A stretch of 64,000 bases of DNA from a virus (Duplodnaviria > Heunggongvirae > Uroviricota > Caudoviricetes), in the IMG/VR virus record IMGVR_UViG_2541047680_000004. One strand, 5' to 3'. Within the stretch, counting starts at the first letter, position 1; each line of letters starts with the position of its first letter. A program made the translations under genes and the position numbers. A model generated the notes under the pieces. The model was not told where the DNA came from, did no database searches, and saw only the letters and a program-made list of their open reading frames with translations. Below, one piece after another: positions 1 to 49,929 of the stretch.

Positions 1-74
1 TTAACTACGAATAGCTTTCATAGAACGAAATATTTCTAAGGCTGTCCAATGCAGACCAGCCTTAGAGATTTATA

Positions 75-434
75 TCAACCTTTCTTCATTAACTCGCGTT
101 TAATTTCATCGGTACGCATCGTGACATCGGCAGCAGTGATCGCCTCGTTCAGCTTCACGATGTCCTCGATTTCCTGCGGTGTCTTCTCCGCAAGATGGAA
201 AATAGCAGCACGAATCACATCAGAGCGGGTGAATTTCTCGAAGCGAGGGATGAACTTCATCATCTCCAGCAGTTCGAAGTATTCGTCTTCCAGTGACATT
301 GTGCGGCTTTTAATTTTCTCTTTGCCACGAGTCGGGCGTCCCTGTGGTCTGACTGGTTGGCGCAAAGGAGTTGTGTTCTTAGCCGGTGCATCAGGCTCTT
401 TGCGCTTTGCTAGGTCACCCATTTTCATGGACAT
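75..434 (-). CDS. putative partition partner protein (ParG/ParB-like candidate) downstream of ParA
   Basis: 119-aa ORF whose start overlaps the ParA stop by 1 nt; basic N-terminus; called from operon position, not from a recognised motif. Confidence 0.4.
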   Translation of the reverse strand: MSMKMGDLAKRKEPDAPAKNTTPLRQPVRPQGRPTRGKEKIKSRTMSLEDEYFELLEMMKFIPRFEKFTRSDVIRAAIFHLAEKTPQEIEDIVKLNEAITAADVTMRTDEIKRELMKKG

Positions 435-1102
435 TATTCTTCTTCCTCCAGACTCAACAGATAATCTACAAATTCTTCAAACTCGGCTTCCGCCTTTTTG
501 TCGCGCTCGCTACCGGTCATTTCAAAGATAGAACGACCAGACTCTTCCGCATCATCATAGACGTTGCGGTTATATAGATTGACTGGCGCAGACTCGATGC
601 CAAACGTCTCAACAATCTCTTTAGCCGCCAGAATGCGAGACACTTGTGATGGCAAAGCCGGGCACTGGTTCATGACCGCGCGGACCTTCACTTTATCGTT
701 TACATTACGAACATTGTCGATAATAGGATCGATGTCACGCAGAGATTTCAAATCACGACGCTTAGGACGAAGCGGGATAATGATAACGTCGGCCATCAGC
801 ATCGCTTGTCGCTGAATTTCGGAGTCAAAGCCACCAGCATCTACCACTACATACTCAGCTCTACCCTGAAGCGATTTTAGGTGCTTAATGATGTCATCCT
901 GAACGTATGCAAAAGGAATCAGCTCAAGGTCTTCGTTCTGTCGACGGTCTTCACACCAGCTCGTTGTCGTGCGCTGAATATCTATATCGGTGATATAAAC
1001 CTTCTTCTTCTTTTTGACTTTCAGGCAAACGGCAATTTGCTGGGCTACGGTGGATTTGCCTGGCCCGCCCTTTGTGCCGCCAACCACAAAGATCTTGGTC
1101 AT
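434..1102 (-). CDS. parA: ParA/Soj-family partition ATPase (small, type Ib-like)
   Basis: 222 aa; deviant Walker A GGTKGGPGKST near N-terminus; acidic C-terminal tail. Confidence 0.8.
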   Translation of the reverse strand: MTKIFVVGGTKGGPGKSTVAQQIAVCLKVKKKKKVYITDIDIQRTTTSWCEDRRQNEDLELIPFAYVQDDIIKHLKSLQGRAEYVVVDAGGFDSEIQRQAMLMADVIIIPLRPKRRDLKSLRDIDPIIDNVRNVNDKVKVRAVMNQCPALPSQVSRILAAKEIVETFGIESAPVNLYNRNVYDDAEESGRSIFEMTGSERDKKAEAEFEEFVDYLLSLEEEE

Positions 1103-1225
1103 TGGAGAGTTCCCTTTGCGTATATAATTATCGTCTGAAACAACTTGTTTTCTTATATGTGATATAGCCTAAATGCCTACGGCTGTGGTGTAAAGGTTTA
1201 ATGATAGGTACATAGGTGGGCTTAA

Positions 1226-1250
1226 TAACAAAAAACCCGCCGTAGCGGGT
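1226..1250 (-). terminator. rho-independent terminator after gene 1251..2024
   Basis: stem ACCCGC/GCGGGT with loop CGTA, flanked by an A-run on plus strand (U-run on minus-strand RNA) directly after the stop. Confidence 0.55.
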
Positions 1251-2024
1251 TTATTGATTCATAGATCGTTTACTCAGAATGTTCACTATATGAGTACAAG
1301 CACCTGGGGTGAGATTGATTTTATTAGTCCCCCACTCTTCACGTCTTCGCATCTGGCCTCCGTCAGACTTACCGATATCCCACGGAATAAAACCACTTAC
1401 GCCACAGGCATCCTCACCCAATTCCTCTATAAAATTTTCGTTCTTCGTATCGTAAATTTCGACCAGTCCATGTTTGCGCATACTCACAGCCCAAAGAGTT
1501 GCGCCTTTTATCGTCTGTAACGTATCGCAAACCAAGTACTGATACTTATCTACGAGATAAAGGTAAGCAAAACTTGCGATGCCTAATCCCATATAATCAG
1601 CATGAGTAAAAACCCCTCTAATCTGCTTGGCGCTGACTTTTACTCCAGATTTATCCTTGATTGGAAACTCGCAGTAGGCCACGCGGAAGACTGTTTGGAC
1701 TGGCTGCCCCACATGCAACTTGTAGGATTCAATTTCTGCTCCTATCTCAAGAGGTGTGTAACCAGCACGTTTGAGTCGCTTAACTTCCTGCTCTTGGTAA
1801 TCAGGATCACATGACTCAAGACACTCGCCAACAATACAGCGTTCATAGGCCGAATCAACAAGCTCGTATTCGGTAAATCGAATTAGATCGAAACCTCGGG
1901 AGATAAAATAGAACTCACCGAGAGCGATAATTCTCGTCGCTCTCGGCATTTCAGACAAGACCTTGCTGTAGTCTTCTATTTCAGGGATTAATCTGTTCGC
2001 CTGACCAATTAGAGATGGTGCCAT
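1251..2024 (-). CDS. hypothetical protein, possible acetyltransferase-like C-terminal half
   Basis: 257-aa ORF; segment YMGLGIASFAYLYL loosely resembles a GNAT glycine-rich motif; weak. Confidence 0.35.
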   Translation of the reverse strand: MAPSLIGQANRLIPEIEDYSKVLSEMPRATRIIALGEFYFISRGFDLIRFTEYELVDSAYERCIVGECLESCDPDYQEQEVKRLKRAGYTPLEIGAEIESYKLHVGQPVQTVFRVAYCEFPIKDKSGVKVSAKQIRGVFTHADYMGLGIASFAYLYLVDKYQYLVCDTLQTIKGATLWAVSMRKHGLVEIYDTKNENFIEELGEDACGVSGFIPWDIGKSDGGQMRRREEWGTNKINLTPGACTHIVNILSKRSMNQ

Positions 2025-2637: not shown

Positions 2638-2874
2638 TCATCGACTCAGTTCAGGTGCCCCCCACTCACACAGCCTTTCACCTATCGTATTGTGGATAAG
2701 CAACTGTCGCTCCGTTTCCTCAGTCATAAAATCCTCTCTACTCACATAGATAGGATTTGCAGCATCGCAGAATAGCACGCCTGGAGCCTGCGTCTTAATC
2801 ACGCACCCATTTATCAAACAGCTCGCGATGAACACCAGAGGCATCTTTTTGCCGCACTTCATTAACCGTTTCAT
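2638..2874 (-). CDS. putative o-spanin (Rz1-like lipoprotein), overlapped architecture
   Basis: alternate frame overlapping the 3' part of the Rz-like ORF; short signal-like segment ending IASC (lipobox-like); start codon uncertain. Confidence 0.3.
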   Translation of the reverse strand: MKRLMKCGKKMPLVFIASCLINGCVIKTQAPGVLFCDAANPIYVSREDFMTEETERQLLIHNTIGERLCEWGAPELSR

Positions 2875-3046
2875 TTTTGACATCCACTGTGCTTTGAAGT
2901 CGTTTTCTGTCTTCCTGTTTTGCCTTCTCTTCCATTGCTCGTCGCGCCGCATTCCCGCCCATCGTGTAAGCGCCGACCAGAACGAAAAGAACGGCAGCCA
3001 GCGTAATCAAAGCAACTTTTAGCTTTGTCATCAGGCTGCCTAGCAT
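2795..3046 (-). CDS. putative i-spanin (Rz-like)
   Basis: 83 aa; N-terminal TM helix LKVALITLAAVLFVLVGAY followed by charged coiled-coil-like region; last gene of lysis cassette. Confidence 0.5.
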   Translation of the reverse strand: MLGSLMTKLKVALITLAAVLFVLVGAYTMGGNAARRAMEEKAKQEDRKRLQSTVDVKNETVNEVRQKDASGVHRELFDKWVRD

Positions 3047-3047: not shown

Positions 3048-3740
3048 TTAGACCATCCCTTTCTGGTGTTTTCTTACCTGCGACCAGGCAATGAATCCTG
3101 CCACAACAATAGTGGCAATACCGAAGATGATGCGTACTGTATCCCCGCTAGAGATATGACCTTGTGCTTTATCCATAGCAGCGGAAACCTGTGGCATAAC
3201 ATCGGCCAGCTGTGCCAGACCAATACCTGCTGTAACAGTTGCGCCTGCGGTTTCTTTAGTTACAGGAACAGCCTTCACGGTTTTCACCGGCTTAACGACG
3301 CCAGCTCGACGCAGACCTTCCTCAATAACTTCTGCCGCATACCAGGTGTTCAGCGTTTTTAGCGGACCTCGCCCATTCTCATGGCGAATGATTGCCTCAA
3401 CCAAAGGTCGAAGGATGTCGTAATCATGCAGATCGATGATCATGTCTGCGGTTACACCAACGGCTTTAGACACCTCATTAATGTAGGCGTCAGTGTTGTT
3501 TTCATTCGGCGGTGCCCAACGTTCAATAACTTCACGAATGGTATCGATACTTGAGCCGTCTTTTGCGCGACGTTTGTCGTGGTAGGTAATTAGAGTCACC
3601 GCCAGCGCACGAATCCCCCAAACAGGGTCTTTAAACGTGCAAAAGCGCGGTTCGTCTGGATTCGCAACCAGACCTTGCCACGGTGATCCTTTATCAAGAT
3701 TACCGGGGTTATTATTACGAATGCCTCTCGGAGTCTTCAT
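3048..3740 (-). CDS. putative endolysin (peptidoglycan hydrolase) with C-terminal hydrophobic segment
   Basis: start placed at MKTPRG with RBS AGGAGA; motif IRNNNPGNL near N-terminus; C-terminal TM-like IIFGIATIVVAGFIAW; position between holin-like gene and spanins. Confidence 0.5.
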   Translation of the reverse strand: MKTPRGIRNNNPGNLDKGSPWQGLVANPDEPRFCTFKDPVWGIRALAVTLITYHDKRRAKDGSSIDTIREVIERWAPPNENNTDAYINEVSKAVGVTADMIIDLHDYDILRPLVEAIIRHENGRGPLKTLNTWYAAEVIEEGLRRAGVVKPVKTVKAVPVTKETAGATVTAGIGLAQLADVMPQVSAAMDKAQGHISSGDTVRIIFGIATIVVAGFIAWSQVRKHQKGMV

Positions 3741-3753
3741 CCTTGATCTCCTG

Positions 3754-4089
3754 TTATTGCAGTCCATTTTTTACGCCATACGCGGCTAACCCCAAAAGCA
3801 GTGCAGTAATAATGAACGACGTTATTTTAGAAACAATGCCGCCAAAGAACCCACTGGAGATGGAATCTAACCGGTTAAGGAGTTTGTCCAGATTGGAGTG
3901 TTGAATACTATGTTGCGCCGGGGTCATATCACCAAAGTAGGTTTTCAGCTGATCATTGACCTCTTGGCCAATTTCTTCACGTAGCTCTTTACCTAATTTA
4001 CCAACAACCTCCCGAGCAACGATCGCGGCAATACGCTCAACTTGCTCTGTTGTAACGCCCGCCATCTCGTTCGACATATTTTCCTCCAT
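3754..4089 (-). CDS. holin-like small membrane protein
   Basis: 111 aa with C-terminal TM segment ITSFIITALLLGLAAYGV; first gene of lysis cassette. Confidence 0.35.
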   Translation of the reverse strand: MEENMSNEMAGVTTEQVERIAAIVAREVVGKLGKELREEIGQEVNDQLKTYFGDMTPAQHSIQHSNLDKLLNRLDSISSGFFGGIVSKITSFIITALLLGLAAYGVKNGLQ

Positions 4090-9712: not shown

Positions 9713-12700
9713 TTACAGAAGGCCAATTCTTACTCGTAGGACGTTGTTATCGTCATAAACGTCAATCCGCTGACCATTTATGACCAGTCGCCCATTACCC
9801 CCGCTATTACCGTTGATCTCAAGCGTTCCATTTTTGCCGAACCGCCATCCAGATCTACCGCTAACAAAATTGGTAGATTGCAGATCGCCTACTTTTGCAT
9901 TGGTGATTGTGCCATCCTTGATATACGCACCATTCATATAGGCGATACTGTTTTCGATAACAAATGGCGTGGTGATCTTCCCGTTAACAGAGTTGACCAA
10001 ACCAAACCTGTCAGCCTGCACCAAAAACTGAGAAAGGCCAGTGGTGTCGATACCAAGCGCAATACCAGCAACATACTTCTGCCCTCCGCTCGTTGAAGTT
10101 TCCATTTTCAACGTCCACGCGGTTGACACTTTTTTGTTGGTATCAGCAATAGCTGTTGCCTGCTGTTGAATTGTCGCGGTATTTCCATCCACCTCTGCTT
10201 TCAGAGTATCGATTCGCCCACTCAGAGCATTATCTGCCTGCGTTCTCGCTGTCGTTTCAGTTGTTACCGCCGCGGAAATGTTGGCTGCCGTTTGAGACTC
10301 TAAGTTTGTGATTTGAGTCGCCAATGCAGCATCTTGCTCTGTACGCGTTTTCGTTTCGGTTGCTACAGCCGCTTTAATATCCTCTTTGTATTGAGAGGTC
10401 AGCTTGGTGATCTGAGACGACAACGCCGAGTCAGCATCAGTTCGAGCCTGCGTTTCAACTGCAACGGCCGCACTAATATCTTTCGCTGTCTGTGCTTTTA
10501 AACTTGAAACCTCTTTTGTTAAAGCGGTATCACCATCAGCACGAGCCGTTGTTTCTCTGGCAAGAGATGCCTCGAGATCATTAGCTTTTGCTGTAAGAGA
10601 CGAAATCTGAGTGGACAATGCACTATCGGCATCAGTCCTTGCCTTTGTCTCTACAGCAACCGCTGCGGCAATATCAGTTCCGGTTTGTGCTCGCAGGCTG
10701 TTAATTTCTCGTGAGAGCGCCTGGTCAGCACTTGCTCTGGCCTCCTGCTCCTGAGTGATGGCAGCGGATATATCACCGTCAACCTTTGACTGAAGCTGGT
10801 TTATTAGTTTGGCTAACGCAGAGTCCCCGCTTGCTCGGGCCTCCTGCTCACTACGTATTGCAGCAGAAATATCATCATCAACCTTTGCCTGAAGTTGGGT
10901 GATCTGGCTTGCCAGAGCCGAATCTTCCGTTGCTCGGGCTTCTTGCTCTTCCTTAATAGCTGCGACGATATCGTTGCTTACTTTCGACTCAAGCTGAGTG
11001 ATCTGTGTCGTCAGAGCTTCATCGGCAGATGTGCGAGCCTCCTGCTCTGTACTAATCGCCGCGCTGATATCTCCTTCAAACTTAGATTGCAGCTGAGTGA
11101 CACGCTTTGCCAACGCTTCATCGCCATCGGCACGAGCGGTGGACTCTTCCAGAATACTGGCCTTAATGTCTTCGCCAATTTCTACGCGAATTTCCTCAAC
11201 CTTCGTGGCCATTGCAGACATATCATCAGCAAAGGTTTTCTGTGTTGTTGCGATCTTCGCGTTATTGACCATCTGCTTGTGCTGGTCTTCATCTTGACGA
11301 AGAGCCAGGTCAATATTTGTTTTGGCTAACGCCTCAATGTTCGTAGTCAGTTCTGCACTGGCACGATCGACCTCTGCAACCGTCTTTTTCATTTCTTCAA
11401 CGGCAGCGGAGCTTTCCTCTACCGTTGACTGCAACACTTCCAGTTGTTTAGCGTTTGCAGCATCGCCTTCAACACGAGCCTCGCTTTCCTTAGCAATAAG
11501 AGCCGCCGCTTCATCTCTTGCAGCCTTTATTGCCTCGACTGTATTAGCGAGAGCTTTATCGTGTTCAGATACGGTGTTTTCGATTTCAACAATTGCAGCA
11601 TCAGTGGCATCAATTTTTTCAAACGCTTCATTGACCTTGTCGATCGTTGCCGAAACCTCACCTTTAAGCTCGGTTTGTGCGTTCTCCAAAGCATCGCTAC
11701 GCTCGTTGAATTTTATTTCAAAACCCGCGAGGTTATCGCTGAACTGCTTATCTAATTCAGCTATATCTTCCTTAACGTCGTTTACCGACCCCTCCAAAGA
11801 TTCGACGCTCTGGTTGATATGCTCATTTAACTCGTCAACTGCTTCTTGAGAGGCTTTGCTGTTGATGTCCTCAAGCAGAGCCTGACCAAGCTCGGAAGAT
11901 GTAATTTTGCCAGCCAGGAACGACAGTACATCGCGAGTTGTCGCCTCTGTACCCAAGTTTGAGTTCGGAGGGCTTAACATACCTCGCTTGTTCGATGCTC
12001 GAACCCAGTAATACCACGTTTCGCTATCCCCAAGACCAGCATGTGTAAAGGTGGTGCTTGCAGACTCTGCGATCAGTTTCGCCGTATCCAGATTGTTGGT
12101 CTGGGATGCGTAAACATTAATGTGATCAAGGTCTACCGAATCTGGATTAACCCAATTCAGTATCACATTACGATAGTCTCCAACGGCCGTTAATGACGTT
12201 GGGGCATCCGGCGGTGTCATTGTGCCCAACACCTGATAAACGGTACTGATAATCTCTGTTTTTTTACCGTTGAATGAAACCGCATACAGTTGGAAGTCGT
12301 AGCGTCCATTCTCCGCGACATTAACGATTTCGTATTGCTCTTCGGTTACACGCGCCGATTGCCAGTTCGATACATTGTTTTCATCAGAACGTCGCCAACT
12401 GATCCAATACTCTGGAGATTTTCCTTCCCATGTTGCAGTCAGTTTTACTGACAGGTTGCCCGGGCTTGAGAGATAAGTCCCTTCAGTGATTTGCAGATTA
12501 GATGGCTTGGAGTAAGTTGGGTCCAATACCGTCGTATTCTGCGGGATCAGCGTTGCACCATTGTCGATTGCCTCATATTTAGACGGATTGTTCTCAACAG
12601 CGGTGATGTCAAAGCTACCCGGCGTTTCCCCCTGCGCGATGTTAACGATGCGAACGCGCATAGGTTCGAGATCTGGTTCTGTAATTGTCCAGACACCGTT

Positions 12701-14443
12701 CAAAACAGGCGTTTCCGCTGACGACAGGGCTTTTGAAAACGTAACCTTTGTTATGTTTTCGCCAGTTTCAAGAACATCGCGTTCAACGATTTTGCCTTCC
12801 TGATTCAATATCCGAATAAAGCTGCCGCTTTTAGCTAACGACACAGGCGCATCGAGAGTGATGCTGTTTTTGGTAAACTCCACAATTCGACCGGAGTTAC
12901 GTTTACCTGCACGATATTTGTTCTGAATCAGAACGGTTTCACCGGGCATCAGAAATGAGGCGTCTAAGCCGGCAGTAAATGTAATTACATCCGACTCCAT
13001 TCTGGCGGTATACAAAAGCCACAAACCAACTCGGTGAGCCTGGCCTCGGCTTGTACATCCAAATGCTACGACTTCTGTTTTACGCTCACCATAACGGCGC
13101 ATTGCGTCCTGATCTTCAACGTACTCGATGTTTTGCTTATAACCGTCCTCCTTGTTGTTGTAGGTTACGAGCGCAACGGATGGGCGATCTTTACGCGCAG
13201 AACCTTTATAGGTAAACAGTCCATCTTTGACGTTGGAGTTGGTAAACATCATTACCGGATCTGATGGGCTATCCTGCATGATGTTAACCATGCCACCAGC
13301 CCAAAACACCATGCCGCGGAATGCACCGGCAATATCCTGAATTAATCGGTATGCGTCTTGTCGACTGGTGATCTGCGTATTGATTGCAAAGCGTTTCTCT
13401 TTACCCCCAAAGCCATCATCGACCTCTTCGTCACAATATCGACCAATCTGGTAGAGCTGGCCGAGGTCAATCATGGATTCCGACACAAATTGCCCAAGAC
13501 CATACCGAGTATTGGTAAGCAAATCGTAGAGAATCCACGCAGGGTTTGAAGAAGACAACAGCTTAAAAGTACCGTCCCATACGCCGACATAAGTATTGGT
13601 GTATTCGTTGTAGTTTGACGGTACTCGGATTTTGATACCGCGCACCAAATACGAACGGGAAGGCATTGTGCTACCAAACTGCTCTGAATTGACCTTCAAG
13701 CCAACAAGAGCAGAGTTAGGGTAGTTCATTGGCGTGTCGACAATCTCACCGATGGAATCAACCCATGTGTCGTTGTAGAGGTACTGGCTACTATTATCAT
13801 CTGTAAGACGAATCACCCTAACCTTGTATGCACGACCAGGCTTAGGCAGTTTCAGCTCATAGCTACGGTAATACACGCCGGTTTTCTTTGCCGTTAGCGT
13901 GATATCAACGCTTTTCTCACCTTCTGCCACTACATCAGAAAATGTTGCGTCTGCGTTGGCGATCTGGAATTTGTACTTCACCGTAGTGCCATTTGTATCG
14001 CCAGAGCTTTTATCAACGCTACGTAAAGAGGGGAATTTCATGATGACACGAACGCGATCAGCTTCATCGTTATCGATTGAAACCGTAACGTCGTGTGTTT
14101 TTTTAAGCTGAATATTTACGGACTTAGGCGTTTCGACAAAATCAAAACCAGCCATTGGCGTCTGATCTTGTGAGCCGTCACGAAAATCCCATGTAATACC
14201 GCTGAAGTTGGAAGAGCCATCTTCATTCAAGATCGGTAAATCGTCGATGAAGATCGACTTTGCGCCATTTACCAGGCCACCGATAACCCCCTCGCCAAGA
14301 AGGTCGAGGATGGCTGCCATAGCACGAGAATTGACAGTATCATCAGCTTCAACCGGGGTACGGCTGGAGCTTTTACTTTTCTTGCCACCAGCACCGGCAA
14401 TAAGAAGCGGTAATTTTTTCTTCTTGAACTGTTCCATGTCCAA
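9713..14443 (-). CDS. tail tip / host specificity protein (lambda J-like) with expanded coiled-coil repeat stalk
   Basis: 1576 aa; blocks matching lambda J (FGCTSRGQAHR, YCDEEVDDGFGG, SALVGLKVNSEQFGS, YVAGI..LSQFLV); about 380 aa of roughly 29-aa tandem repeats before the C-terminal domain. Confidence 0.9.
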   Translation of the reverse strand: MDMEQFKKKKLPLLIAGAGGKKSKSSSRTPVEADDTVNSRAMAAILDLLGEGVIGGLVNGAKSIFIDDLPILNEDGSSNFSGITWDFRDGSQDQTPMAGFDFVETPKSVNIQLKKTHDVTVSIDNDEADRVRVIMKFPSLRSVDKSSGDTNGTTVKYKFQIANADATFSDVVAEGEKSVDITLTAKKTGVYYRSYELKLPKPGRAYKVRVIRLTDDNSSQYLYNDTWVDSIGEIVDTPMNYPNSALVGLKVNSEQFGSTMPSRSYLVRGIKIRVPSNYNEYTNTYVGVWDGTFKLLSSSNPAWILYDLLTNTRYGLGQFVSESMIDLGQLYQIGRYCDEEVDDGFGGKEKRFAINTQITSRQDAYRLIQDIAGAFRGMVFWAGGMVNIMQDSPSDPVMMFTNSNVKDGLFTYKGSARKDRPSVALVTYNNKEDGYKQNIEYVEDQDAMRRYGERKTEVVAFGCTSRGQAHRVGLWLLYTARMESDVITFTAGLDASFLMPGETVLIQNKYRAGKRNSGRIVEFTKNSITLDAPVSLAKSGSFIRILNQEGKIVERDVLETGENITKVTFSKALSSAETPVLNGVWTITEPDLEPMRVRIVNIAQGETPGSFDITAVENNPSKYEAIDNGATLIPQNTTVLDPTYSKPSNLQITEGTYLSSPGNLSVKLTATWEGKSPEYWISWRRSDENNVSNWQSARVTEEQYEIVNVAENGRYDFQLYAVSFNGKKTEIISTVYQVLGTMTPPDAPTSLTAVGDYRNVILNWVNPDSVDLDHINVYASQTNNLDTAKLIAESASTTFTHAGLGDSETWYYWVRASNKRGMLSPPNSNLGTEATTRDVLSFLAGKITSSELGQALLEDINSKASQEAVDELNEHINQSVESLEGSVNDVKEDIAELDKQFSDNLAGFEIKFNERSDALENAQTELKGEVSATIDKVNEAFEKIDATDAAIVEIENTVSEHDKALANTVEAIKAARDEAAALIAKESEARVEGDAANAKQLEVLQSTVEESSAAVEEMKKTVAEVDRASAELTTNIEALAKTNIDLALRQDEDQHKQMVNNAKIATTQKTFADDMSAMATKVEEIRVEIGEDIKASILEESTARADGDEALAKRVTQLQSKFEGDISAAISTEQEARTSADEALTTQITQLESKVSNDIVAAIKEEQEARATEDSALASQITQLQAKVDDDISAAIRSEQEARASGDSALAKLINQLQSKVDGDISAAITQEQEARASADQALSREINSLRAQTGTDIAAAVAVETKARTDADSALSTQISSLTAKANDLEASLARETTARADGDTALTKEVSSLKAQTAKDISAAVAVETQARTDADSALSSQITKLTSQYKEDIKAAVATETKTRTEQDAALATQITNLESQTAANISAAVTTETTARTQADNALSGRIDTLKAEVDGNTATIQQQATAIADTNKKVSTAWTLKMETSTSGGQKYVAGIALGIDTTGLSQFLVQADRFGLVNSVNGKITTPFVIENSIAYMNGAYIKDGTITNAKVGDLQSTNFVSGRSGWRFGKNGTLEINGNSGGNGRLVINGQRIDVYDDNNVLRVRIGLL
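10250..11330 (-). repeat. tandem coding repeats (about 87 bp units) inside J-like gene
   Basis: repeated ISAAI..EQEARA..DSALA..QITQLQSKV units in translation. Confidence 0.65.
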
Positions 14444-16981: not shown

Positions 16982-19900
16982 TTAGTTACGTTGAGTGTTT
17001 GGGTTGAGTGATCCGCCAGGGCGTTTCTCTTGAGCGATAGTCTCAAGCGCGATTGCTTTCATCCGTTGAGCGGCATTGTTCCATATGCTTTCTGTATCGC
17101 CGGATTCTGTCGTGCTACCGTCACTATGGACGTTGATCTCAATTGATACAGGAGAAAGAACATTTCCGCCTCCACTCATACCATCGGTACTGAGCGTTAC
17201 AGGGATTGTTCGGCCATCAGGCAATGGAACATACGCCTCATTCATAGAACCTTCCCCAAACAACGCTAATTGAGGCGAGTTAGCAATACCGCCTTTCTGG
17301 TATGCCCCGAGCGGGATCACGCCGTCTTTTCCGAATATTCCTCCATTTGCAAACTTCGGGATTGCAGGAATGCCTTTAGTTCCGTCAGCCACACTGCTGG
17401 TTGCGGTTTTAGCAGAGCTTGATGTCACGCTGTCGAAACCACCGCCAGCCCAAGCTGAAACAAGACCAGATGCAACCGTTGCTCCAAAACTCAACCACTT
17501 ATTACCAGAGCCGGAAGCATTAGCTCCAAGCATTGCAAACGCGGCAGACAGCGCGCCGGTAACAGAGCTGAGGTTCTGCATCGAGAAGATGGAGTCCTTC
17601 ACGGCTTTTGTCTCGGCATCTTTGGCTTCAGTGCTATCAAATAGCCCTGATACCCAGCTACCAATCGCATTTGTTGCAGTGCCAATTGCGCTGGTGGTCT
17701 GCTGTGTTGTTTGCCCCAATCCAGTTACCGAACTGGACGTCTCCTTCGTGGCTTCTCCTACCGACTTGTCGCCGTTAACAGTGTTGCCCATTCGTACCCC
17801 TTGATTGGCAACGGCGGAAGCAACCCCGGTCAGCAAATTACCACTCTGTGAACTACCAGCTGCGGTGGTTCCCATCCCCAACATGTTCATTAGAGGCAGC
17901 GTGATTTGCGACTTCACGACCATATTGGTGATATCTTTCAAAATGGACTGAGATAGGCTGGAGAAGCTCATCTTCCCGTTAATAACGAAATCAGTCAGGA
18001 CATCAGTTAAGCCACTAAACAAATCAGTCCAGGTGCTTTCGATCTGCTCTGCCAAGTTTTCGTATTCCAGTGCCAACTTCTGCGTCGCAGTCCCCGTCTC
18101 TTTAATAAGCGCGGTATTGCCAGCAGCAATCAGTTGATTGATTTTCTTTGTATAAAGCGCCACAACTTTAGGATCAGACGCCTTATCACGAAGTTCTATC
18201 AACGCTTTGAGATTGCGGTTGTAGGTGTCTTCGAAATCAGCAACTTTCTCTTCGCGAGACGGCGTATAGCCAGCACTAATAATGGAATCCGCCTCCGGTG
18301 CCCAAGTGGAGATCATCTGCTCAACATTGCGGCGATTAAACATCTCGCGATATTCAGGTGTCGCATTTTTGAGGTCTTCAAGACGTTTTTTCGCCTTGTC
18401 GATCATCTCTTGAGTGATGAACTCGTTAGGAACCGCATTAGCCAAATCTGTCAGCGATTTCGTTGTATCGCGAAGAGACTGATCAAACGATACCGTAGCC
18501 TTAGAGCTTTCACCCATTTGCCCCATAAGCTGATCGGCTTTGTCCAGAGCCTTCTGGTATCCGGCTGCCAGTTTCTGTTGCGCTGCCTGTTCCTTCTTGG
18601 CCGCACGCTGCGAGGCGTTAGCTGATCGTTGGGCTGCTTTCTCGGCAGCTGCTGCATCCTGTTCACGAGCTTTAGTTAGTGCAGCAATGGCTGCGGCACG
18701 CTCTTCATCGCTCATTTTCTCCAGAGAGCTGGCGCTGGATGCTTTCTGCAAATTAAGCTGCGTCTTGAGTTGTTTAGGCCCAATAATCGGCTTACCTTCG
18801 AAGTCCATCATCGGAGTGCCGTCAGGCAAAGTACGCTGATAAGTCGCAGAATCCATCTGGTTTCGCATATATTGCGCCAACGCCTTCTGAGCAGCTTTAT
18901 CAGTTGTACCTAACCCAAGAACAGTCCCCTGGTTTGACATTACGCCCTTACCAGTTTTGGCCGCGTTATCTCTCTCGAACTCTGCCTGAGTAAGTTCCTG
19001 AGCAACGGCTTCCAAATGCTCCTGATAACCACGAATACTGCCTTGCAGTTTCTGGATTTGCTCGGTATTGCCATCCTTTTTGGCTTTTTCAAGCTGATCA
19101 TTAAGAGTCGCGATTTGCTTCTCGGTCGCATTCTTACGAGAAGAAAGTGAATCAACCAGTTTTTGCGCAGGCTCCAGATAGCTTTTGTTTACCGTTTCAC
19201 GTAACGGTGCCAATAGCTTGTTCTTTTCGTCATCTGAAAGTGAACCGTCATCATTGATTTTCTGAATCTTATCCAGAGCCTCCTGCCGGGCTTTCACGAA
19301 TGTTGCCGCGAAAATCTGGTTTTCCTCTCGAATTTTCTCAATCTGAGATTCGGCAGCCTCTTTAGCCAAACGCTTTGCTACAGCGCCGTCACCAAGAGCT
19401 ATCGTGCCGGTTATCTTTTGATACTCTTCCTGATTTTTTTTCAGGCGTGCTTCGATGTCAGCCTTCGACTCTTTGTGAGTAATAACACCGGCAGAGTTAG
19501 ATACGTAATTAACGCCCTCACCATTTTTTAATGCTCGTTGATCAGCGAGAATCTGCTTTTCGAGCTTTTCTGCGCGATCGGCCATCTGTGCTCGTTTGGC
19601 CGCTGTCATCGCCTCTGGTATTTTCCTAATCTCGTCAACGACCTTTGAAGTTTCGCTGCGGAGCATGGTCATGTACGTGATTAGGCCAGCAACAGCTACA
19701 GTGGCAACTGTAAATGCTGCCCCTATAGGGTTTGCTGCAATGAACGCCGTTAATCCCGCAAAAGCGCCTTTAAGCCCCGTAATCGCCCCACGGATGGCGA
19801 AAATAAGAGAGGGGATCGGAGCCAGCCCCATACGTGCCGCACGATTGAATCGAGTTACTGCTGTAGCACCGAGATTAAATGGAGTCTGTATGGCGGTCGC

Positions 19901-21556
19901 CATCGTGGCAAAGGTGCTAACCATCTGGCTCCCAGCGCCAACTACCCCCATGATCCCTGCTCGCATCAGTTTGAACGCAACCATCGCGGCCACGACCTTA
20001 CCGAGATTAATTACCAGCTCTTGGTTCTTTGCTAACCATTGAGCAAGCTGACGCAACCCATCGATTGCCGTTGTTAACCCCGAACCTAAAGAATTGGCAA
20101 ACGAAATCCCTTCGGCGCTATTCATGATTGAAGCCAGTTCTTTCATCCCCTTCGATAGAGAATCCAGATATCCGGCCTGACCAACCCGATCAGCAAATAA
20201 CGTGAATGACGTCTGAAGTTGCGCCAGCGCACCTGTGTAGGTTTGCATCATGTCTTTCGCTGCGTTCTCATTCTCCGCACGCAGACCAACAAACATCAGA
20301 GACAACGCCTGTTTTGCCTCAACCGTACCGCTGGCAACGGCTTTAGTCAGTTCCCCCATAGTGATGCCTGCGGCGTCTGCCATTGCCTGCATCGCGTTAG
20401 GAACGGCTTCACCTAATTGCTGACGTAGCTCTTCCATTGACACAACGCCCTTACCGGACATCTGCTGAACGGCCACAGCCGCACGTTTCAACAGCTCACT
20501 ATCACCACCAAAACGAGCAACGGAGTCCACCAGCGCCTTCAGAGAACCATCGGTTGGATCTAAGCCAGCAGAACGAAACTTCACGAAGGAGTCTGTTAAC
20601 GCCTGCATCGCGAACGGCGCATTTTGAGCCATGTCTACGATGTACTTCATATCATCAGCGGCAGCCTGGCCCGGGTTGGACTTCTCCTTATTCAACCCTC
20701 GAAGCATCACCCGCATACGTTCCATTTCGGCCGCAGCTTCAACAATAGGCTTCTGCCACCCAAACATGATGTCAGTAACCGTTCTGGCTGCATCTCCGAT
20801 CTCGCCAAGCAGGAAAATGTTGCCACGAAGGCCAGAGAACATACCTCCTTCGTTACTTTTACCGCTATGGCCAGAAGCGCCGCTACGCCGCCCGCTACCA
20901 CCATCGCCACTTCCAGATGTACGAACGCGTACCGGCTTGCTAATCAGTTGCTGACGTCCGATAACTTCGTCCATCTGCTCACGAACCTTTTTCAGTCCCT
21001 CGGCAGCCTGACTCGTTGTGACACCCCAATTACTGAGTCGCTTCGTCGTGGTATTAAGGCGCGTATTCATGCCACTCACGGACGCAGAGGCTTCTTTGAC
21101 CTCCGTACCAAAGCGGCTTGCGCTTTTGCTTGCATAGGTCGCCCAATCAGAGAAATCATTTAGCTCTGATTGCACTTTACGTAATGACGCGGTGAGTTTA
21201 TCTACTGAAGAAGTTGTCGTATCGACGCGCTCAATCAGGGCTTTAAGACCAGAATTGAGGCTGGTGATGTTGCCACGCATTTTACGCGTAGCATCTGAAG
21301 CAAGCTCAAAACCGGCAGCTACATCCTGTAGTTTATCTGCAGTAGAATCGAGCTTGCTTTCCAGAACGCCAATGATACGGGCGACCGAACCCAAAGAGCG
21401 TTCAAAGGTTTGGATTTTTTGAGCAGGCTTTGTTACCTGCTCACCAAATCGAGTAAGCAGTTTCCCCGCACGATCGATTGACGCTGTAAACTGTTTGTCT
21501 TCCAGCGACAGGATAAACTCTACGTTTTGTGACATTCCCTTGTCATCCTCTGCCAA
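16982..21556 (-). CDS. tail tape measure protein
   Basis: 1524 aa; long coiled-coil and Gly/Ala-rich hydrophobic regions; position upstream of M-like gene. Confidence 0.85.
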   Translation of the reverse strand: MAEDDKGMSQNVEFILSLEDKQFTASIDRAGKLLTRFGEQVTKPAQKIQTFERSLGSVARIIGVLESKLDSTADKLQDVAAGFELASDATRKMRGNITSLNSGLKALIERVDTTTSSVDKLTASLRKVQSELNDFSDWATYASKSASRFGTEVKEASASVSGMNTRLNTTTKRLSNWGVTTSQAAEGLKKVREQMDEVIGRQQLISKPVRVRTSGSGDGGSGRRSGASGHSGKSNEGGMFSGLRGNIFLLGEIGDAARTVTDIMFGWQKPIVEAAAEMERMRVMLRGLNKEKSNPGQAAADDMKYIVDMAQNAPFAMQALTDSFVKFRSAGLDPTDGSLKALVDSVARFGGDSELLKRAAVAVQQMSGKGVVSMEELRQQLGEAVPNAMQAMADAAGITMGELTKAVASGTVEAKQALSLMFVGLRAENENAAKDMMQTYTGALAQLQTSFTLFADRVGQAGYLDSLSKGMKELASIMNSAEGISFANSLGSGLTTAIDGLRQLAQWLAKNQELVINLGKVVAAMVAFKLMRAGIMGVVGAGSQMVSTFATMATAIQTPFNLGATAVTRFNRAARMGLAPIPSLIFAIRGAITGLKGAFAGLTAFIAANPIGAAFTVATVAVAGLITYMTMLRSETSKVVDEIRKIPEAMTAAKRAQMADRAEKLEKQILADQRALKNGEGVNYVSNSAGVITHKESKADIEARLKKNQEEYQKITGTIALGDGAVAKRLAKEAAESQIEKIREENQIFAATFVKARQEALDKIQKINDDGSLSDDEKNKLLAPLRETVNKSYLEPAQKLVDSLSSRKNATEKQIATLNDQLEKAKKDGNTEQIQKLQGSIRGYQEHLEAVAQELTQAEFERDNAAKTGKGVMSNQGTVLGLGTTDKAAQKALAQYMRNQMDSATYQRTLPDGTPMMDFEGKPIIGPKQLKTQLNLQKASSASSLEKMSDEERAAAIAALTKAREQDAAAAEKAAQRSANASQRAAKKEQAAQQKLAAGYQKALDKADQLMGQMGESSKATVSFDQSLRDTTKSLTDLANAVPNEFITQEMIDKAKKRLEDLKNATPEYREMFNRRNVEQMISTWAPEADSIISAGYTPSREEKVADFEDTYNRNLKALIELRDKASDPKVVALYTKKINQLIAAGNTALIKETGTATQKLALEYENLAEQIESTWTDLFSGLTDVLTDFVINGKMSFSSLSQSILKDITNMVVKSQITLPLMNMLGMGTTAAGSSQSGNLLTGVASAVANQGVRMGNTVNGDKSVGEATKETSSSVTGLGQTTQQTTSAIGTATNAIGSWVSGLFDSTEAKDAETKAVKDSIFSMQNLSSVTGALSAAFAMLGANASGSGNKWLSFGATVASGLVSAWAGGGFDSVTSSSAKTATSSVADGTKGIPAIPKFANGGIFGKDGVIPLGAYQKGGIANSPQLALFGEGSMNEAYVPLPDGRTIPVTLSTDGMSGGGNVLSPVSIEINVHSDGSTTESGDTESIWNNAAQRMKAIALETIAQEKRPGGSLNPNTQRN

Positions 21557-32004: not shown

Positions 32005-32020
32005 AAAACAACTTGTTTAC
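32005..32020. promoter_or_regulatory. family-1 operator-like dyad (AAAACAA-C-TTGTTT)
   Basis: matches dispersed consensus AGAAAACAAnTTGTTTTCT; upstream of terS. Confidence 0.45.
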
Positions 32021-32030
32021 TGCATCTGCT

Positions 32031-32049
32031 AACCAACTTGTTTTCTGGG
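32031..32049. promoter_or_regulatory. family-1 operator-like dyad
   Basis: AACCAACTTGTTTTCTGGG; second copy upstream of terS. Confidence 0.4.
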
Positions 32050-32160: not shown

Positions 32161-32427
32161 TTACATCACCAGTAACTTCGCTTTGGCTCGACCTAAAGTG
32201 GTTAACCCAAGAGTTCGGCGGTGATAGCGATTGTCACTGCGTTGGCGCGTATGCCCTTTCTCCACCAGCCCCTTTTTTATCAGAGCGCGAATTGAGAACT
32301 GGATACTTTGCTTGGTTGTCTTGTACGGCAAAACTTCAAGCAATTCGTCCAGGTCAAGTAGATGACCTCGCTCATAACCGAGATTGAGCGTTTTGATGAT
32401 GTCCTTTTGTTTATCGGTTAACGTCAT
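32161..32427 (-). CDS. small winged-helix-like DNA-binding protein (candidate)
   Basis: 88 aa; helix-turn-wing-like pattern TKQSIQFSIRALIKKGLVEK and basic C-terminus. Confidence 0.4.
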   Translation of the reverse strand: MTLTDKQKDIIKTLNLGYERGHLLDLDELLEVLPYKTTKQSIQFSIRALIKKGLVEKGHTRQRSDNRYHRRTLGLTTLGRAKAKLLVM

Positions 32428-32436
32428 GGCAAATCC

Positions 32437-33327
32437 TTATGCCGGTAAAGCAATTTCTAACGGTTTATCCAAAGGTTGTTTGTCGAATGCCAGCAGTGGC
32501 AGCGTGTCAGGCAGTCGACGGCCAAAGTCAGGGTTTCGGTACACACCATACAACGGAGACGTAAAGCTCAGGTTGTGAATGTCCTTGAGCAGCTTCACAA
32601 TGCTGGCCTCGTCCACCAGACTGTCGGCAATGTCCTGAATCGTCGTGCCACGATTCCGCCCAGCTTTTGCCAGGGAACTGTTCTTGTGGTAGTCCGCCAC
32701 CAGATCACGCAGTGCACGGCGACGACGAGACTCGCTCATTGCGAACAATTCTTTGACGATCGCCTCGTTATCACCCGGGTCGGAACGGAAATGGCGCTGG
32801 AATACACGCAGTGCACTTTCATAGCTCTTCGGTCGCTCAGGGCGGATGAACTTAAACCCTGCTTTCATGGCGAAGGGATTGTATTTGCTCATCGAGGACT
32901 GGATCTCAATGATTGGCCGGTCATGCATCCTGCTAACCAGGTTAATCATTCGATAAGAGACGCCTACGCCACGATACTGAGTATCCACAACTGAGCGACT
33001 GATCACCGCAAAGTTGTTATTCACGTACCGACCCCAGTACTGGTTAGCCACGGTGGTATTAGTGGTTGGTTTCAACTTAGGAAACATGCGGTGGCGAGGT
33101 GCCAGCAGTAGTTTCGGGTAAGCCATAACCACGACGCCCACCAGACGGTCATCAAGTTCGCAGCGATAGTAAGTTGGCGCGAAAGGTTTGCCGTCTGTTT
33201 TGTAGTGAAGCGACTTAAGAGCGTGCCAGTCCTCTACAGTTCCCTTTGTGACAGTCATTCGCTCCAGAAAGTCCAGATGACGCGGAAACTCTTCAGGGCG
33301 GTAGCGTTTAATGATGATGTCCGTCAT
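32437..33327 (-). CDS. GNAT-like acetyltransferase domain protein with C-terminal extension
   Basis: VVDTQYRGVGVSYRMI (R-x-x-G-x-G-like) and NPFAMKAGFKFI resemble GNAT motifs A and B; 296 aa. Confidence 0.45.
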   Translation of the reverse strand: MTDIIIKRYRPEEFPRHLDFLERMTVTKGTVEDWHALKSLHYKTDGKPFAPTYYRCELDDRLVGVVVMAYPKLLLAPRHRMFPKLKPTTNTTVANQYWGRYVNNNFAVISRSVVDTQYRGVGVSYRMINLVSRMHDRPIIEIQSSMSKYNPFAMKAGFKFIRPERPKSYESALRVFQRHFRSDPGDNEAIVKELFAMSESRRRRALRDLVADYHKNSSLAKAGRNRGTTIQDIADSLVDEASIVKLLKDIHNLSFTSPLYGVYRNPDFGRRLPDTLPLLAFDKQPLDKPLEIALPA

Positions 33328-33989
33328 AAATGAACCTCATCATGACTACCATTGTGATATTCCACCTTCACGCGTTCTTTGTAGTGCTTGGTGATCTGCA
33401 TATCCGGGCGCAGCGCGTTCTTCAGGTCTTCGTGAGTCGTCGCCACCATTACCGTCGCACCAACCTTTCGAGCGGCACGCTGGAGGTTAGATGCCACAAC
33501 CTGAGCGGTTACACGGTCTAGAACAGCACCGAACTCGTCAGCAGCCCACACTTTAGCGCCTGACTCAATCAGTTTGGCAATCTTGAGACGATATTTCTGA
33601 CCGTCTGACATTTCAGAAGGCTTGCGAACAAACAGATATGCATCGTTCAGACCAGCCATAGATAACAACCCAAGCGCATCGCTGGTCGTTTTGCCCAACT
33701 GATCGATGACGTTAACCTCATTATCGAAGGTAAAATCATCGATGGAGGCTACAGACAGCCCTTCATCCTTCATCTGTCGTTGCAACTCGCGCAGCACAAC
33801 GGATTTGCCGGAACCGGATTGGCCGGTGATGTACACCACATCGCCCTGCTTCACTTCCAGCTCCAGATTGTCGTAAAGCGTCCACTCTTTTTCGTCCAGG
33901 CCAAGCCCGAACGACTCAGCGATTTCCAACGTGCGCGTGGTTTTATTTACGCGTGTCTGAAACGATACGTTGATGATGTATTTGCTCAT
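33324..33989 (-). CDS. small ABC-type ATPase
   Basis: Walker A GQSGSGKS, signature-like MSDGQKYRL, Walker B VWAADEF, H-loop TTHE; 221 aa, no transmembrane partner adjacent. Confidence 0.8.
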   Translation of the reverse strand: MSKYIINVSFQTRVNKTTRTLEIAESFGLGLDEKEWTLYDNLELEVKQGDVVYITGQSGSGKSVVLRELQRQMKDEGLSVASIDDFTFDNEVNVIDQLGKTTSDALGLLSMAGLNDAYLFVRKPSEMSDGQKYRLKIAKLIESGAKVWAADEFGAVLDRVTAQVVASNLQRAARKVGATVMVATTHEDLKNALRPDMQITKHYKERVKVEYHNGSHDEVHL

Positions 33990-34654
33990 ACAGCCATCTC
34001 CCCGGAAGAGATCTTCTCCGCATATGCCACAAATGCGTCTACCCCGCTTTCTCCCGTCATTTCTTCCATGTGGGCAAGCAAATCACCAACAACAATGGCA
34101 GAGCCAGCAGGAAGCGTTTTAAAGCCCAATACGTCGACAACACGTACTTCTTCCGCTGCAACTTCACGACTGATCTCGGTGTGTTCATCCTTCTGTCGTT
34201 TAGTTTCTTCGCCAAGATCGATAACTAGCGAGTCGGTGTCCATTTCTTCTGTCATGCTGCCAACGAGAACATTCAACTCACGCTCTTCAAAGCCGAAAAC
34301 CTCGATATCGTCCAGAACAAGCGACTCAAGCTCTTTCTGTAGCTTAATTGCATCGTAATCAATGCTGGCAAGTCGGTTATCTTCAAGGCGCTTCGCACGA
34401 ACCTCGTCATCACTGAGATCATCGCGAACAATAACCGGTACGCGCTCAAGTCCAGCAAAAATTGCAGCCTCACGGCGGCCGTGGCCAGTAATAATTACGT
34501 CGTTCTTATCGACCGTAATTGGCTGGTCAAATCCGCGCTTTTTAATGGCTGCGGCTAGATCTCGGATCTGCTGTTCATCATGCTTTTTGGCATTCATCTC
34601 ATAGGGAATAAGATCTGCCGGGTCGCGATATACGATTTCAAACTTTTTGGTCAT
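33986..34654 (-). CDS. ParB/Srx-like N-terminal domain protein
   Basis: motif ITGHGRREAA (GxxRxxA-type ParB box); start set at internal Met overlapping upstream stop. Confidence 0.7.
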   Translation of the reverse strand: MTKKFEIVYRDPADLIPYEMNAKKHDEQQIRDLAAAIKKRGFDQPITVDKNDVIITGHGRREAAIFAGLERVPVIVRDDLSDDEVRAKRLEDNRLASIDYDAIKLQKELESLVLDDIEVFGFEERELNVLVGSMTEEMDTDSLVIDLGEETKRQKDEHTEISREVAAEEVRVVDVLGFKTLPAGSAIVVGDLLAHMEEMTGESGVDAFVAYAEKISSGEMAV

Positions 34655-35334
34655 TACATACGCTCCTTGTAGTAGTCGACCAGCCACACCAGAGCCTCAC
34701 CAGCGTTCTCCATTTCATTACCGGTGTTAATAGCCTGCTCTTTGATGATGTTTTTTATGGTTTCTGCAACACGATCTGACGCATCGAAAGTTACTTTGAA
34801 GCGCATGGTCTGATGTTCCGCCCCCACACGTTCGGTTTTCTCTCGTTTGTCGGTATCGACAGGCTCATCACTACCACGAGACAACGCCTCCAGTGCTTCA
34901 AGGTCGATTGCCGCCTCTTTTGCTAAAACCATCGAGATTTCGTCGTCATACGGGGCGATTTCAGACAGTTGATAGTCAAGTTCTGACTGAATTTCTTCAA
35001 TGAAGCGTTGCAATGCGATTTGGTCGTCTTCACCGTATCGCTCGTTGTCCACCAGTGACATCTGTTTAGCTACGACATCGCTAATTTTGCCCACAGAAAG
35101 CACTGGAACCGTTGAAATTCCTTGCTCAATAGCGGCACGCCAGCGATGTTCGCCGCCGAGGATTTCAAAAAATCCATCTTCAAGTTCACGAGCCAAAATT
35201 GGCTTAAAAAAGCCCAATTTTTCGATAGAACCTTTCAGTTTTTCAAAATTCTGCGCACCAACCGAATTGGTGTTCCAGGTATTCGGGCGAAGGTTGGCAA
35301 CATCAACCTGCAAAATCGTGATTTTTACATCCAT
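34654..35334 (-). CDS. ParB/Srx-like N-terminal domain protein
   Basis: motif ILGGEHRWRAA; first gene of the minus-strand operon; start codon uncertain (ATG at 35334 or GTG at 35352). Confidence 0.7.
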   Translation of the reverse strand: MDVKITILQVDVANLRPNTWNTNSVGAQNFEKLKGSIEKLGFFKPILARELEDGFFEILGGEHRWRAAIEQGISTVPVLSVGKISDVVAKQMSLVDNERYGEDDQIALQRFIEEIQSELDYQLSEIAPYDDEISMVLAKEAAIDLEALEALSRGSDEPVDTDKREKTERVGAEHQTMRFKVTFDASDRVAETIKNIIKEQAINTGNEMENAGEALVWLVDYYKERM

Positions 35335-35352
35335 TTTATTGCTACAATCCAC

Positions 35353-41922: not shown

Positions 41923-41930
41923 GGGCATAA

Positions 41931-49539: not shown

Positions 49540-49929
49540 CTACATCACAGGACAATCATCAAACTCGCCACTTCTTGCGTCGTTGATAATGTGAGTGATC
49601 ACACCAAACACGGCATTGCTGCCCGTGCATCCATCATCATCCTTTGGCAATGCTTCCTTCTTACCAGTTCTTAAATCCTCCAGATGCTGACGTGGATACT
49701 TCCGGTATCTTTTTACGCGATATTCCCCATCCAGAGCACATACAAGAAGAGATCCATCAACAGGAGTCAGTGAGGAATCGACCACCAGCAATGCACCCTG
49801 CAATATTCCCTCACGATGATGACTATCAGCCGCCCTCATGAAGTAGGTCGCTGAAGGATGTCTAATTATCTGCTGATCAAGAGAAATACGGCTCTCAGCA
49901 TAATCCGCCGCAGGAGAAGGGAAGCCCAT
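49540..49929 (-). CDS. UmuD'-like S24 peptidase-fold protein (HumD-like)
   Basis: begins MGFPSPAADY, aligning with UmuD from the RecA cleavage site onward; Ser (ADSH) and Lys (RVKR) positions conserved; in-frame TAA 15 nt upstream of ATG; RBS AAGAGG. Confidence 0.85.
   Translation of the reverse strand: MGFPSPAADYAESRISLDQQIIRHPSATYFMRAADSHHREGILQGALLVVDSSLTPVDGSLLVCALDGEYRVKRYRKYPRQHLEDLRTGKKEALPKDDDGCTGSNAVFGVITHIINDARSGEFDDCPVM

Follow-up and report, generated by a model that had tools for sequence, protein, structure and literature searches.

A probable type Ib partition operon in an SSU5-type phage-plasmid, with a promoter palindrome that recurs across the element

Introduction

Phages N15 and P1 are kept as low-copy plasmids by partition systems built around a Walker-type ParA, namely sopAB in N15 and parABS in P1. 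The locus described here lies near one end of a 64,000-nucleotide stretch of DNA (the window; all coordinates are window positions) from the virus record IMGVR_UViG_2541047680_000004 (Caudoviricetes), and it likewise encodes a Walker-type ParA on a phage kept as a plasmid. The N15 and P1 systems use a large type Ia ParA together with SopB or ParB, whereas the ParA of the window is of type Ib. We argue below that this ParA and the small protein encoded immediately downstream very probably constitute a type Ib partition operon, which would keep a low-copy plasmid prophage of ~110 kb in both daughter cells.

The described type Ib system with which the locus can best be compared is parFGH of TP228. 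In both cases the ATPase is a small ParA that lacks an N-terminal DNA-binding domain (ParF is the best solved match of the window ParA), and in both the ATPase gene is immediately preceded by a control region. The small downstream partner may also be alike, with a flexible N-terminal tail predicted before a compact, putative DNA-binding core. Neither sequence nor fold comparison, however, detected similarity between the partner and ParG. The partner is also longer, at 119 amino acids (aa) rather than 76 aa; it has two additional helices at the C-terminus, and the loop that separates helices A and B is long. The DNA upstream of the genes differs from parH as well, because it has no array of 4 bp boxes and instead contains a single 15 bp palindrome that is common to many unrelated promoters.

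The nearest relatives of the element itself are well known. The largest phage-plasmid supergroup has Salmonella phage SSU5 as its type member (PMC7969092), and the SSU5 parA gene serves as a screening marker for such elements (bioRxiv 10.1101/2025.09.12.675607). The plasmid pECOH89 is a circular, phage-like molecule of 111,741 bp that encodes CTX-M-15 (PMC3999498). SSU5, pHCM2 and pECOH89 carry the same par cassette as the window, and only the flanking cargo genes vary. The presence of ParA and the plasmid life of SSU5-type elements are thus already known, and the present analysis adds nothing new there; a phage-plasmid with partition genes is established biology and an ordinary finding. What is added is the annotation of the partner as a probable centromere-binding protein of a narrow family, the correction of what is probably a mistaken toxin label, and the recognition of an operator common to the par promoter and ~16 other promoters or start codons, which provides a testable link between plasmid maintenance and global gene control. 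SSU5-type phage-plasmids are common in clinical Enterobacteriaceae and carry resistance genes, such as blaCTX-M-15 on pECOH89, and for this reason the stability of their inheritance matters for the spread of resistance.

The partition genes

The first-pass annotation of this DNA, made from its letters alone, described a small ParA with a deviant Walker A motif and an overlapping downstream partner gene. Both open reading frames (ORFs) are present to the base, on the minus strand:

434 to 1102, minus strand: parA, ORF of 222 aa, type Ib Walker-type partition ATPase
75 to 434, minus strand: partner gene, ORF of 119 aa, probable centromere-binding protein

The ParA protein begins MTKIFVVGGTKGGPGKST and carries the deviant Walker A sequence KGGPGKST at residues 11-18, with the signature lysine present (pattern KGGxxK[ST]). 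It matches the Pfam families AAA_31, MipZ, CbiA, ParA and VirC1 above their cut-offs, and PHROG 164 ('ParA-like partition protein') at 2e-51. The best solved relative is ParF of TP228 (4dzz), with an E value of 3e-10 over residues 9-199. The protein is small, with the Walker A motif starting at residue 11 of 222, and there is no helix-turn-helix or other DNA-binding extension at the N-terminus.

The ATG of the partner gene overlaps the stop codon of parA by one base (TAATG), which indicates translational coupling. The partner has no match in Pfam, and neither do 13 members of its family; phmmer and profile searches of PDB sequences also gave no match. It falls in PHROG 5111, the function of which is not known, and is annotated as hypothetical in the SSU5, pHCM2 and pECOH89 records. 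A word-index search returned 25 relatives, and an exhaustive search with a hidden Markov model gave 18 matches among 1.84 billion representatives. At the level of loci, 6 were found in genome contigs and 80 in viral contigs, the viral-contig loci all being at least 90% identical. The more distant members that were looked up (25-42% identity) directly follow a ParA of 221-229 aa in all five cases. The partner therefore represents a very narrow, uncharacterised family that is constantly paired with a small ParA, and the retention of this pairing even at 25-41% identity argues that the two genes are not a chance pair of ORFs.

Alignments of the family reveal a short N-terminal motif, MGDLAK(R/K), which becomes GGLGKK or GLGGLVK in distant members and has the general form G-x-L-x-K; L8 is invariant and K10 nearly so. 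The motif is followed by a variable linker and then by a basic stretch that ends in I-K-S-R-T-M-S, in which I41, R44 and S47 are invariant. Helices are placed at residues 48-59 and 70-82, the second opening with T-R-S-D-V-I-R-A-A (R70, D72 and R75 invariant), and two further helices come after these. AlphaFold2 models have pLDDT values of 65 and 70, with residues 1-25 mostly below 50. Judged from these models, the partner would consist of a disordered N-terminal tail and a ribbon-helix-helix-like core formed by the IKSRTMS strand and two helices. Fold searches gave no confirmation of a ribbon-helix-helix fold, and the partner belongs to none of the ParG, Omega or ribbon-helix-helix families of Pfam; hhalign against a ParG sequence gave a probability of 0.1. 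Helix B (TRSDVIRAAI) does resemble the ParG sequence TSITDVVNQLV. Covariation of the DNA-binding strand with the upstream site was also considered as a source of evidence, and was set aside because the family is too narrow and the strand motif too conserved. By analogy with other type Ib systems, the partner is probably the centromere-binding protein, even though previous annotations call it hypothetical or a toxin.

The toxin annotation comes from phage Cyrano, where the orthologue CYRAN_29 is labelled 'RelE/ParE putative toxin'. If this label were correct, the pair would be some other kind of stability module rather than a true partition system. That reading is scarcely credible, because not one of the 13 family members matches any Pfam toxin family, even with E values of up to 10, and the PDB searches were equally empty. 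The RelE fold is compact, whereas in the partner the N-terminal part is long, basic and disordered and the C-terminal part is helical. In addition, no antitoxin is paired with the partner, and the KacAT-like toxin-antitoxin pair of Cyrano is a separate variable insertion. The label on CYRAN_29 is probably a mis-annotation, and one that could propagate to other records.

One might also look for the binding partner of ParA elsewhere in the window. Two ParB_N-domain proteins, encoded at 33986..35352, match both Pfam ParB_N and PHROG 'ParB-like partition protein' families, and they could in principle be the real centromere-binding proteins, with the 119 aa ORF doing something else. This arrangement is very improbable. 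The two genes are 33 kb distant, in an operon that precedes the terminase genes and also codes for an ABC-type ATPase, and their products are retained in the Yersinia pestis plasmid pMT1, which has no such ParA and uses its own large ParA and ParB. The usual partner of a small type Ib ParA is itself small and encoded next to it, and the coupling of the 119 aa gene to parA holds in all of the relatives.

The assignment of the 119 aa protein as the partner of ParA leads to a model based on type Ib systems such as TP228 parFGH. Dimers of ParA-ATP would coat the nucleoid, and partner dimers would bind a site in the ~105 bp region upstream of parA by means of the ribbon-helix-helix-like core. The disordered G-x-L-x-K tail would then stimulate ATP hydrolysis by ParA, an activation that we infer from type Ib systems, and the resulting ParA gradient would move plasmid copies apart. 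Binding of the partner would also repress the par promoter (autorepression), and the promoter may be further throttled by a global regulator of the element that binds the palindrome described below.

The element and its plasmid lifestyle

Window positions 73-25000 are 99.8% identical to pECOH89 (NC_023916.1) over 25 kb. The region is syntenic, gene by gene, with SSU5, in which the order is holin, endolysin, spanins, two hypothetical genes, ParA-like protein and hypothetical gene, and the window shows the same kind of synteny with phage Cyrano. The par cassette occupies the same position after the lysis genes in SSU5 (85.7% DNA identity) and pECOH89 (99%). The element shares the backbone and gene order of the group represented by SSU5, pHCM2 and pECOH89, and on this sequence comparison it is an SSU5-supergroup phage-plasmid of E. 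coli, essentially pECOH89, of ~110 kb.

Evidence for the extrachromosomal state comes from database records of relatives, not of the source isolate. Of 5426 complete E. coli genomes, 263 carry the par cassette; they have 264 copies between them, all plasmid-borne and none chromosomal. A total of 774 plasmid records contain the cassette, from Klebsiella, Escherichia, Enterobacter, Salmonella, Citrobacter, Cronobacter and Shigella; 740 of the 774 are typed as non-mobilizable, and hundreds of the cassette-bearing records are circular plasmids of 100-115 kb. Phage records with the cassette number 11, and SSU5, Cyrano and PhiR41_1 are among them.

A different kind of carrier is pLKJULY7989 (NZ_CP029688.1), a 152 kb mosaic multiresistance plasmid of E. 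coli that has captured the cassette along with the adjacent toxin-antitoxin pair. This plasmid is without the SSU5 backbone and has two other ParA/ParB systems.

The first-pass annotation had proposed a phage-plasmid rather than a classical integrating lambdoid phage, and the near identity to pECOH89, the synteny with SSU5 and the plasmid location of all E. coli copies bear this out. It had also suggested that a stably integrated element with a conventional integrase and att sites, and without an episomal form, would disprove the proposal. A site-specific integrase gene is in fact present in the pECOH89 record (19743..20846 of that record, outside the window), and yet pECOH89 is a plasmid and chromosomal copies are absent from the complete E. 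coli genomes. The presence of an integrase alone would therefore not refute a plasmid lifestyle, and in this respect the suggestion was too strict. Because all of the E. coli copies are plasmid-borne, the pECOH89 integrase is probably a dimer-resolution or accessory recombinase.

Two supporting features named in the same annotation had different fates. The HumD-like gene is real (49540..49929, minus strand; 129 aa, Peptidase_S24/UmuD-like). Iterons were not found: Tandem Repeats Finder, run on the whole window, returned nothing iteron-like, and the RepB initiator gene is outside the window, at 101-1315 of the pECOH89 record. No UmuC-like polymerase gene was noticed adjacent to the UmuD/HumD-like gene (49540-49929, minus strand).

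The par upstream region and the centromere

Three features can be placed in the DNA upstream of parA:

1103 to 1209, minus strand: conserved par control region of ~105 bp, from an alignment of nine relatives
1166 to 1194, minus strand: putative sigma-70 promoter of parA, with -35 TTTACA at 1189-1194, a 17 nt spacer and -10 TAGGCT at 1166-1171
1137 to 1151: 15 bp palindromic operator, AAAACAAGTTGTTTC on the gene strand, 14 nt downstream of the -10 and with 35 nt to the parA ATG

Across the nine relatives, which come from E. coli, Salmonella, Enterobacter and Klebsiella, 80-97% of the alignment columns are invariant in the interval 1127-1201. The corresponding values are 43-83% in alignment segments that lie wholly inside parA, with a low of 10% in the variable linker of the partner. 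Because it is the most conserved part of the cassette, 1103..1209 is the best candidate location for the operator of the centromere-binding protein and for the centromere. The first-pass annotation had placed the centromere site outside the window, and this is not established and is probably wrong, since the most conserved non-coding DNA of the cassette is directly upstream of parA and inside the window. Equally, no classical centromere was found: the upstream search for centromere repeats that had been recommended yielded a single palindrome and a TAGGC doublet, with no array.

The putative promoter was not called by a consensus promoter scanner, because its -10 hexamer is weak and matches at only 3 of 6 positions. 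The spacer contains GCCGTAGGC (1175-1183) and the TAGGC direct repeat. The former is single-copy in the window and recurs upstream of parA in a distant locus, L107, in which ATAATTCACGC is also found again. Neither is claimed as a binding site, and ATAATTCACGC is not conserved within the main group of relatives.

The palindrome is the more constant feature. Of 78 viral-contig relatives, 77 have an identical 19 nt core, AAGAAAACAAGTTGTTTCA, and in divergent groups the palindrome takes the form AAAACATCTTGTTTT (L010/L011) or AAAACAACATGTTTA (L108), with a weaker form in L112. Folding of the par leader RNA gave no significant structure (z = 0.29), which makes a protein-DNA or protein-leader interaction likelier than a hairpin.

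Some of the results weigh against the partition assignment and should be considered together. Type Ib centromeres are iterated short repeats, as in parH of TP228, parC of pB171 and the omega heptads. The repeat search of 1..1300 gave nothing beyond chance matches, short and in two copies, and no iterated array was detected there or in the aligned upstream regions; the centromere could therefore lie elsewhere. The ParA protein does not reach the NCBIfam equivalog NF041546 (ParA_partition), scoring 115.5 bits against a cut-off of 180 bits. Finally, literature searches brought up no experiments on SSU5-type partition or on these operators. With respect to the family assignment, ParA is, on sequence grounds, a divergent small type Ib partition ATPase of the ParF/MipZ branch that is not filed under the ParA_partition equivalog.

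A dispersed family of palindromes

The palindrome in the par promoter is one of ~16 dispersed operators in the window, with the consensus AAAACAAsTTGTTTT. A 16-mer allowing up to 3 mismatches finds 22 matches in the window (~16 sites) where 1.13 are expected, so that the dispersed operators listed in the first-pass annotation are real. The 15-mer consensus with up to 2 mismatches finds 13 sites, versus 0.3 expected. The copies outside the par promoter include the following:

32005 to 32044: two palindrome copies upstream of the small-terminase gene, both conserved in pMT1
38229: a further palindrome site
41143 to 46127: operator cluster, with copies at 41143, 41907, 42810, 43295, 44489, 46062 and 46113
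54888 to 59253: operator copies at 54888, 57796, 58510 and 59239

Several sites share a common layout, in which a -10 hexamer such as GATAAT is followed by 12-13 nt resembling ACACCAnnAAG, the palindrome, 10-40 nt and a minus-strand start codon. At 41143, 43295, 46062 and approximately 42810, the hexamer (GATAAT or TATTAT) is 12-13 nt before the palindrome. The sites at 41907 and 46113 lie at the -35 level, so that some promoters have a second copy there, and those at 57796, 58510 and 59239 are 11-23 nt upstream of minus-strand start codons. Palindromes precede many small early genes, as well as the genes for the small terminase, a DUF4942 (methylase-like) protein, an HD-domain protein and a TerB-like protein; beyond the window, pECOH89 also has one ahead of a DnaB-like helicase gene. 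The palindromes are conserved in pMT1 and in the divergent Klebsiella plasmid L115. Taken at the level of sequence, they look like a genome-wide repressor regulon of the phage-plasmid. The copy in the par promoter would wire expression of the partition genes into this global control circuit.

A described parallel is the C1 regulon of P1, in which many copies of one operator are spread across a phage-plasmid genome and control dispersed operons. Unlike the palindromes, the P1 operators to which C1 binds are asymmetric 17-mers, and the window showed no C1 homologue. P1 par is not known to be under C1 control.

A second palindrome family, GTAAGTA..TACTTAC, occurs at 23063 and 42405 of the window and at 7104, 13540, 17189, 19105, 31760, 44956 and 46107 of L115. 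Most of these copies are in the structural-gene half, and they may mark late promoters or terminators.

Which protein binds the palindrome?

Two proteins of the phage-plasmid backbone are candidates for the binder of the palindromes:

37756 to 38277, plus strand: FljA-like repressor gene (Pfam Flag1_repress, 2.5e-84; PHROG 1444, 'transcriptional repressor')
32161 to 32427, minus strand: 88 aa protein, annotated in Cyrano as 'DNA binding domain containing protein' and adjoining the terminase operators

It is reasonably likely that a backbone regulator of this kind, either the FljA-like repressor or the 88 aa protein, binds the palindrome, rather than the partition protein. Evidence for this comes from pMT1, which shares the SSU5 backbone and has its own large ParA/ParB pair. 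No homologue of the window ParA or of the partner was found in pMT1, and yet this plasmid keeps the palindromes at orthologous promoters. Between pMT1 and the window, only 1 of 40 arm positions has changed, compared to 6 of 20 centre or outer positions, and the surrounding intergenic DNA is ~22% divergent. Conservation of the arms without the partner suggests continued selection on the sites that is independent of the partner.

FljA is the Salmonella repressor of phase-1 flagellin and acts on fliC. The FljA-like gene is present in pMT1 and Cyrano and absent from pLKJULY7989; it occurs in 831 plasmid records, Yersinia among them, and belongs to the core genes of these phage-plasmids. The leader of Salmonella fliC reads CCAATAACATCAAGTTGTAATTGATAAGGAAAAGATCATG (given as a primer in PMC5056187). 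This leader shares the palindrome core CAAGTTGT ~20 nt before the start codon, a distance similar to that at the window sites, and binding of the FljA homologue to the window sites is on this likeness a candidate interaction. The combination of an FljA homologue and the shared core raises the question of whether the element affects flagellin expression in its host.

The 88 aa protein is the alternative candidate. It is 89% identical in pMT1 and 78% identical in L115, and a Pfam search gave no match.

The case for a backbone regulator has its own difficulties. The FljA-like protein is only 36% identical in L115 even though the operators there are unchanged (ten perfect AAACAA-N-TTGTTT sites are kept), which weakens FljA as the binder. 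Furthermore, the palindrome is the sole non-coding element of the cassette that is kept in all of the divergent groups, as would be expected of the partner's own site.

This last point leads to the proposal that the partner itself binds the dispersed palindromes, in which case there would be at least ~16 centromere or operator sites and the partition protein would have a second role, global repression of early, replication and packaging promoters. Type Ib centromere-binding proteins generally repress their own promoter. The par promoter contains no dyad other than the palindrome, and among non-coding elements the palindrome alone is conserved in the main group, L010/L011, L108 and L112 alike; it is essentially invariant in 77 of 78 relatives. 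The putative DNA-contacting strand (SRT.S) and helix B (RSDV.RA) of the partner are invariant or nearly so, matching the unchanged operators of divergent plasmids. In addition, parA-partner is the sole operator-preceded operon found to have a recognisable DNA-binding candidate, and pLKJULY7989 retains the palindrome along with the cassette.

Dispersed sites of this general kind have precedents, namely the SopB sites of N15, the KorB operators of RK2 and the omega heptads of pSM19035; in N15 the palindromic SopB sites are scattered among phage promoters, much like the palindromes here. If the partner did bind all of the palindromes, partition complexes would be spread over the whole plasmid prophage, and one small protein would run segregation, early-gene silencing and packaging control. 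The system would then be a type Ib counterpart of N15 SopB or RK2 KorB, drawn from an undescribed family.

We nevertheless regard binding by the partner as unlikely. The palindrome arms are under apparent purifying selection in pMT1, which has no partner. Nearly all of the sites are just upstream of a start codon, several of them at a fixed distance past a -10 hexamer, and this layout suggests a dedicated transcription or translation regulator. Locus L107 has a similar strand motif in its partner and a related par promoter that is without the palindrome. Sites that served as dispersed centromeres should depend on the partition protein, whereas pMT1 keeps them without the cassette; because of this persistence, the palindromes are probably not centromeres, as far as sequence comparison can indicate. 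The converse situation, a cassette without the backbone, is provided by pLKJULY7989, where only the palindrome of the parA promoter is kept. The transfer looks recent and two other par systems are present, so this case was given little weight.

Cassette boundaries and neighbourhood

The genes and signals around the par cassette are as follows:

32 to 69, minus strand: hairpin past the stop codon of the partner, an inverted repeat with an RNA fold of -20.2 kcal/mol (z = -3.5)
1233 to 1252, minus strand: intrinsic terminator, an 8 bp stem followed by a T-run
1251 to 2428: two genes of unknown function, between the spanins and the terminator at 1233-1252
2638 to 3046: spanins
3048 to 3767: endolysin
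3754 to 4089: putative holin, named only by synteny with SSU5_026 (PHROG 5093, no known function)

The partition genes had been described as lying beyond the lysis cassette, and they do so directly, following the holin, endolysin, spanins, two genes and a terminator. This terminator (1233..1252) is predicted to end the upstream late/lysis transcription unit and to insulate the par promoter. At the other end, the hairpin at 32..69 is a probable terminator; it lies between convergent genes and outside the conserved cassette, a convergent coding sequence in locus L001 ending at window position 14.

Homology of the cassette starts at 72-77 and stops at ~1209 regardless of overall identity, which is 97% in E. 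coli, 86% in SSU5 and Enterobacter, and 79% in Klebsiella. The DNA on both sides (1-75 and 1210-2430) varies among close relatives (loci L003-L009, L116 and L117). The upstream flank contains either the 257 aa gene of the window or a DUF1778/GNAT (KacAT-like) toxin-antitoxin pair, and the downstream flank may hold a gene for a DUF2971 protein or for one with a P-loop NTPase fold, or else a convergent hypothetical gene. The differing flanks and sharp edges argue that the cassette sits between two cargo-exchange hot spots.

Other features of the window

Besides the two ParB_N-domain proteins, the minus-strand operon at 32161-35352, upstream of the terminase genes, encodes an ABC-type ATPase, the 88 aa protein and another of 296 aa. 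The operon is conserved in pMT1 and shows no linkage to the ParA gene at 434..1102.

A full-length methionyl-tRNA synthetase gene is found at 46211-48373 (minus strand), and divergent from it is a gene for a 366 aa iron-sulfur carrier ATPase of the Mrp/NUBPL type (48402-49502, plus strand). The latter protein is labelled 'MinD' in some records and was considered as a second partition ATPase; it was ruled out as such because it is of the Mrp/NUBPL type.

The remaining observations concern large ORFs of the window. A 99 bp tandem repeat is present in 2.2 copies at 10731-10948, inside an ORF of 1576 aa (9713..14443), and the 1432 aa tail-fibre protein (5323-9621) contains a long Ala/Ser-rich stretch of low complexity.

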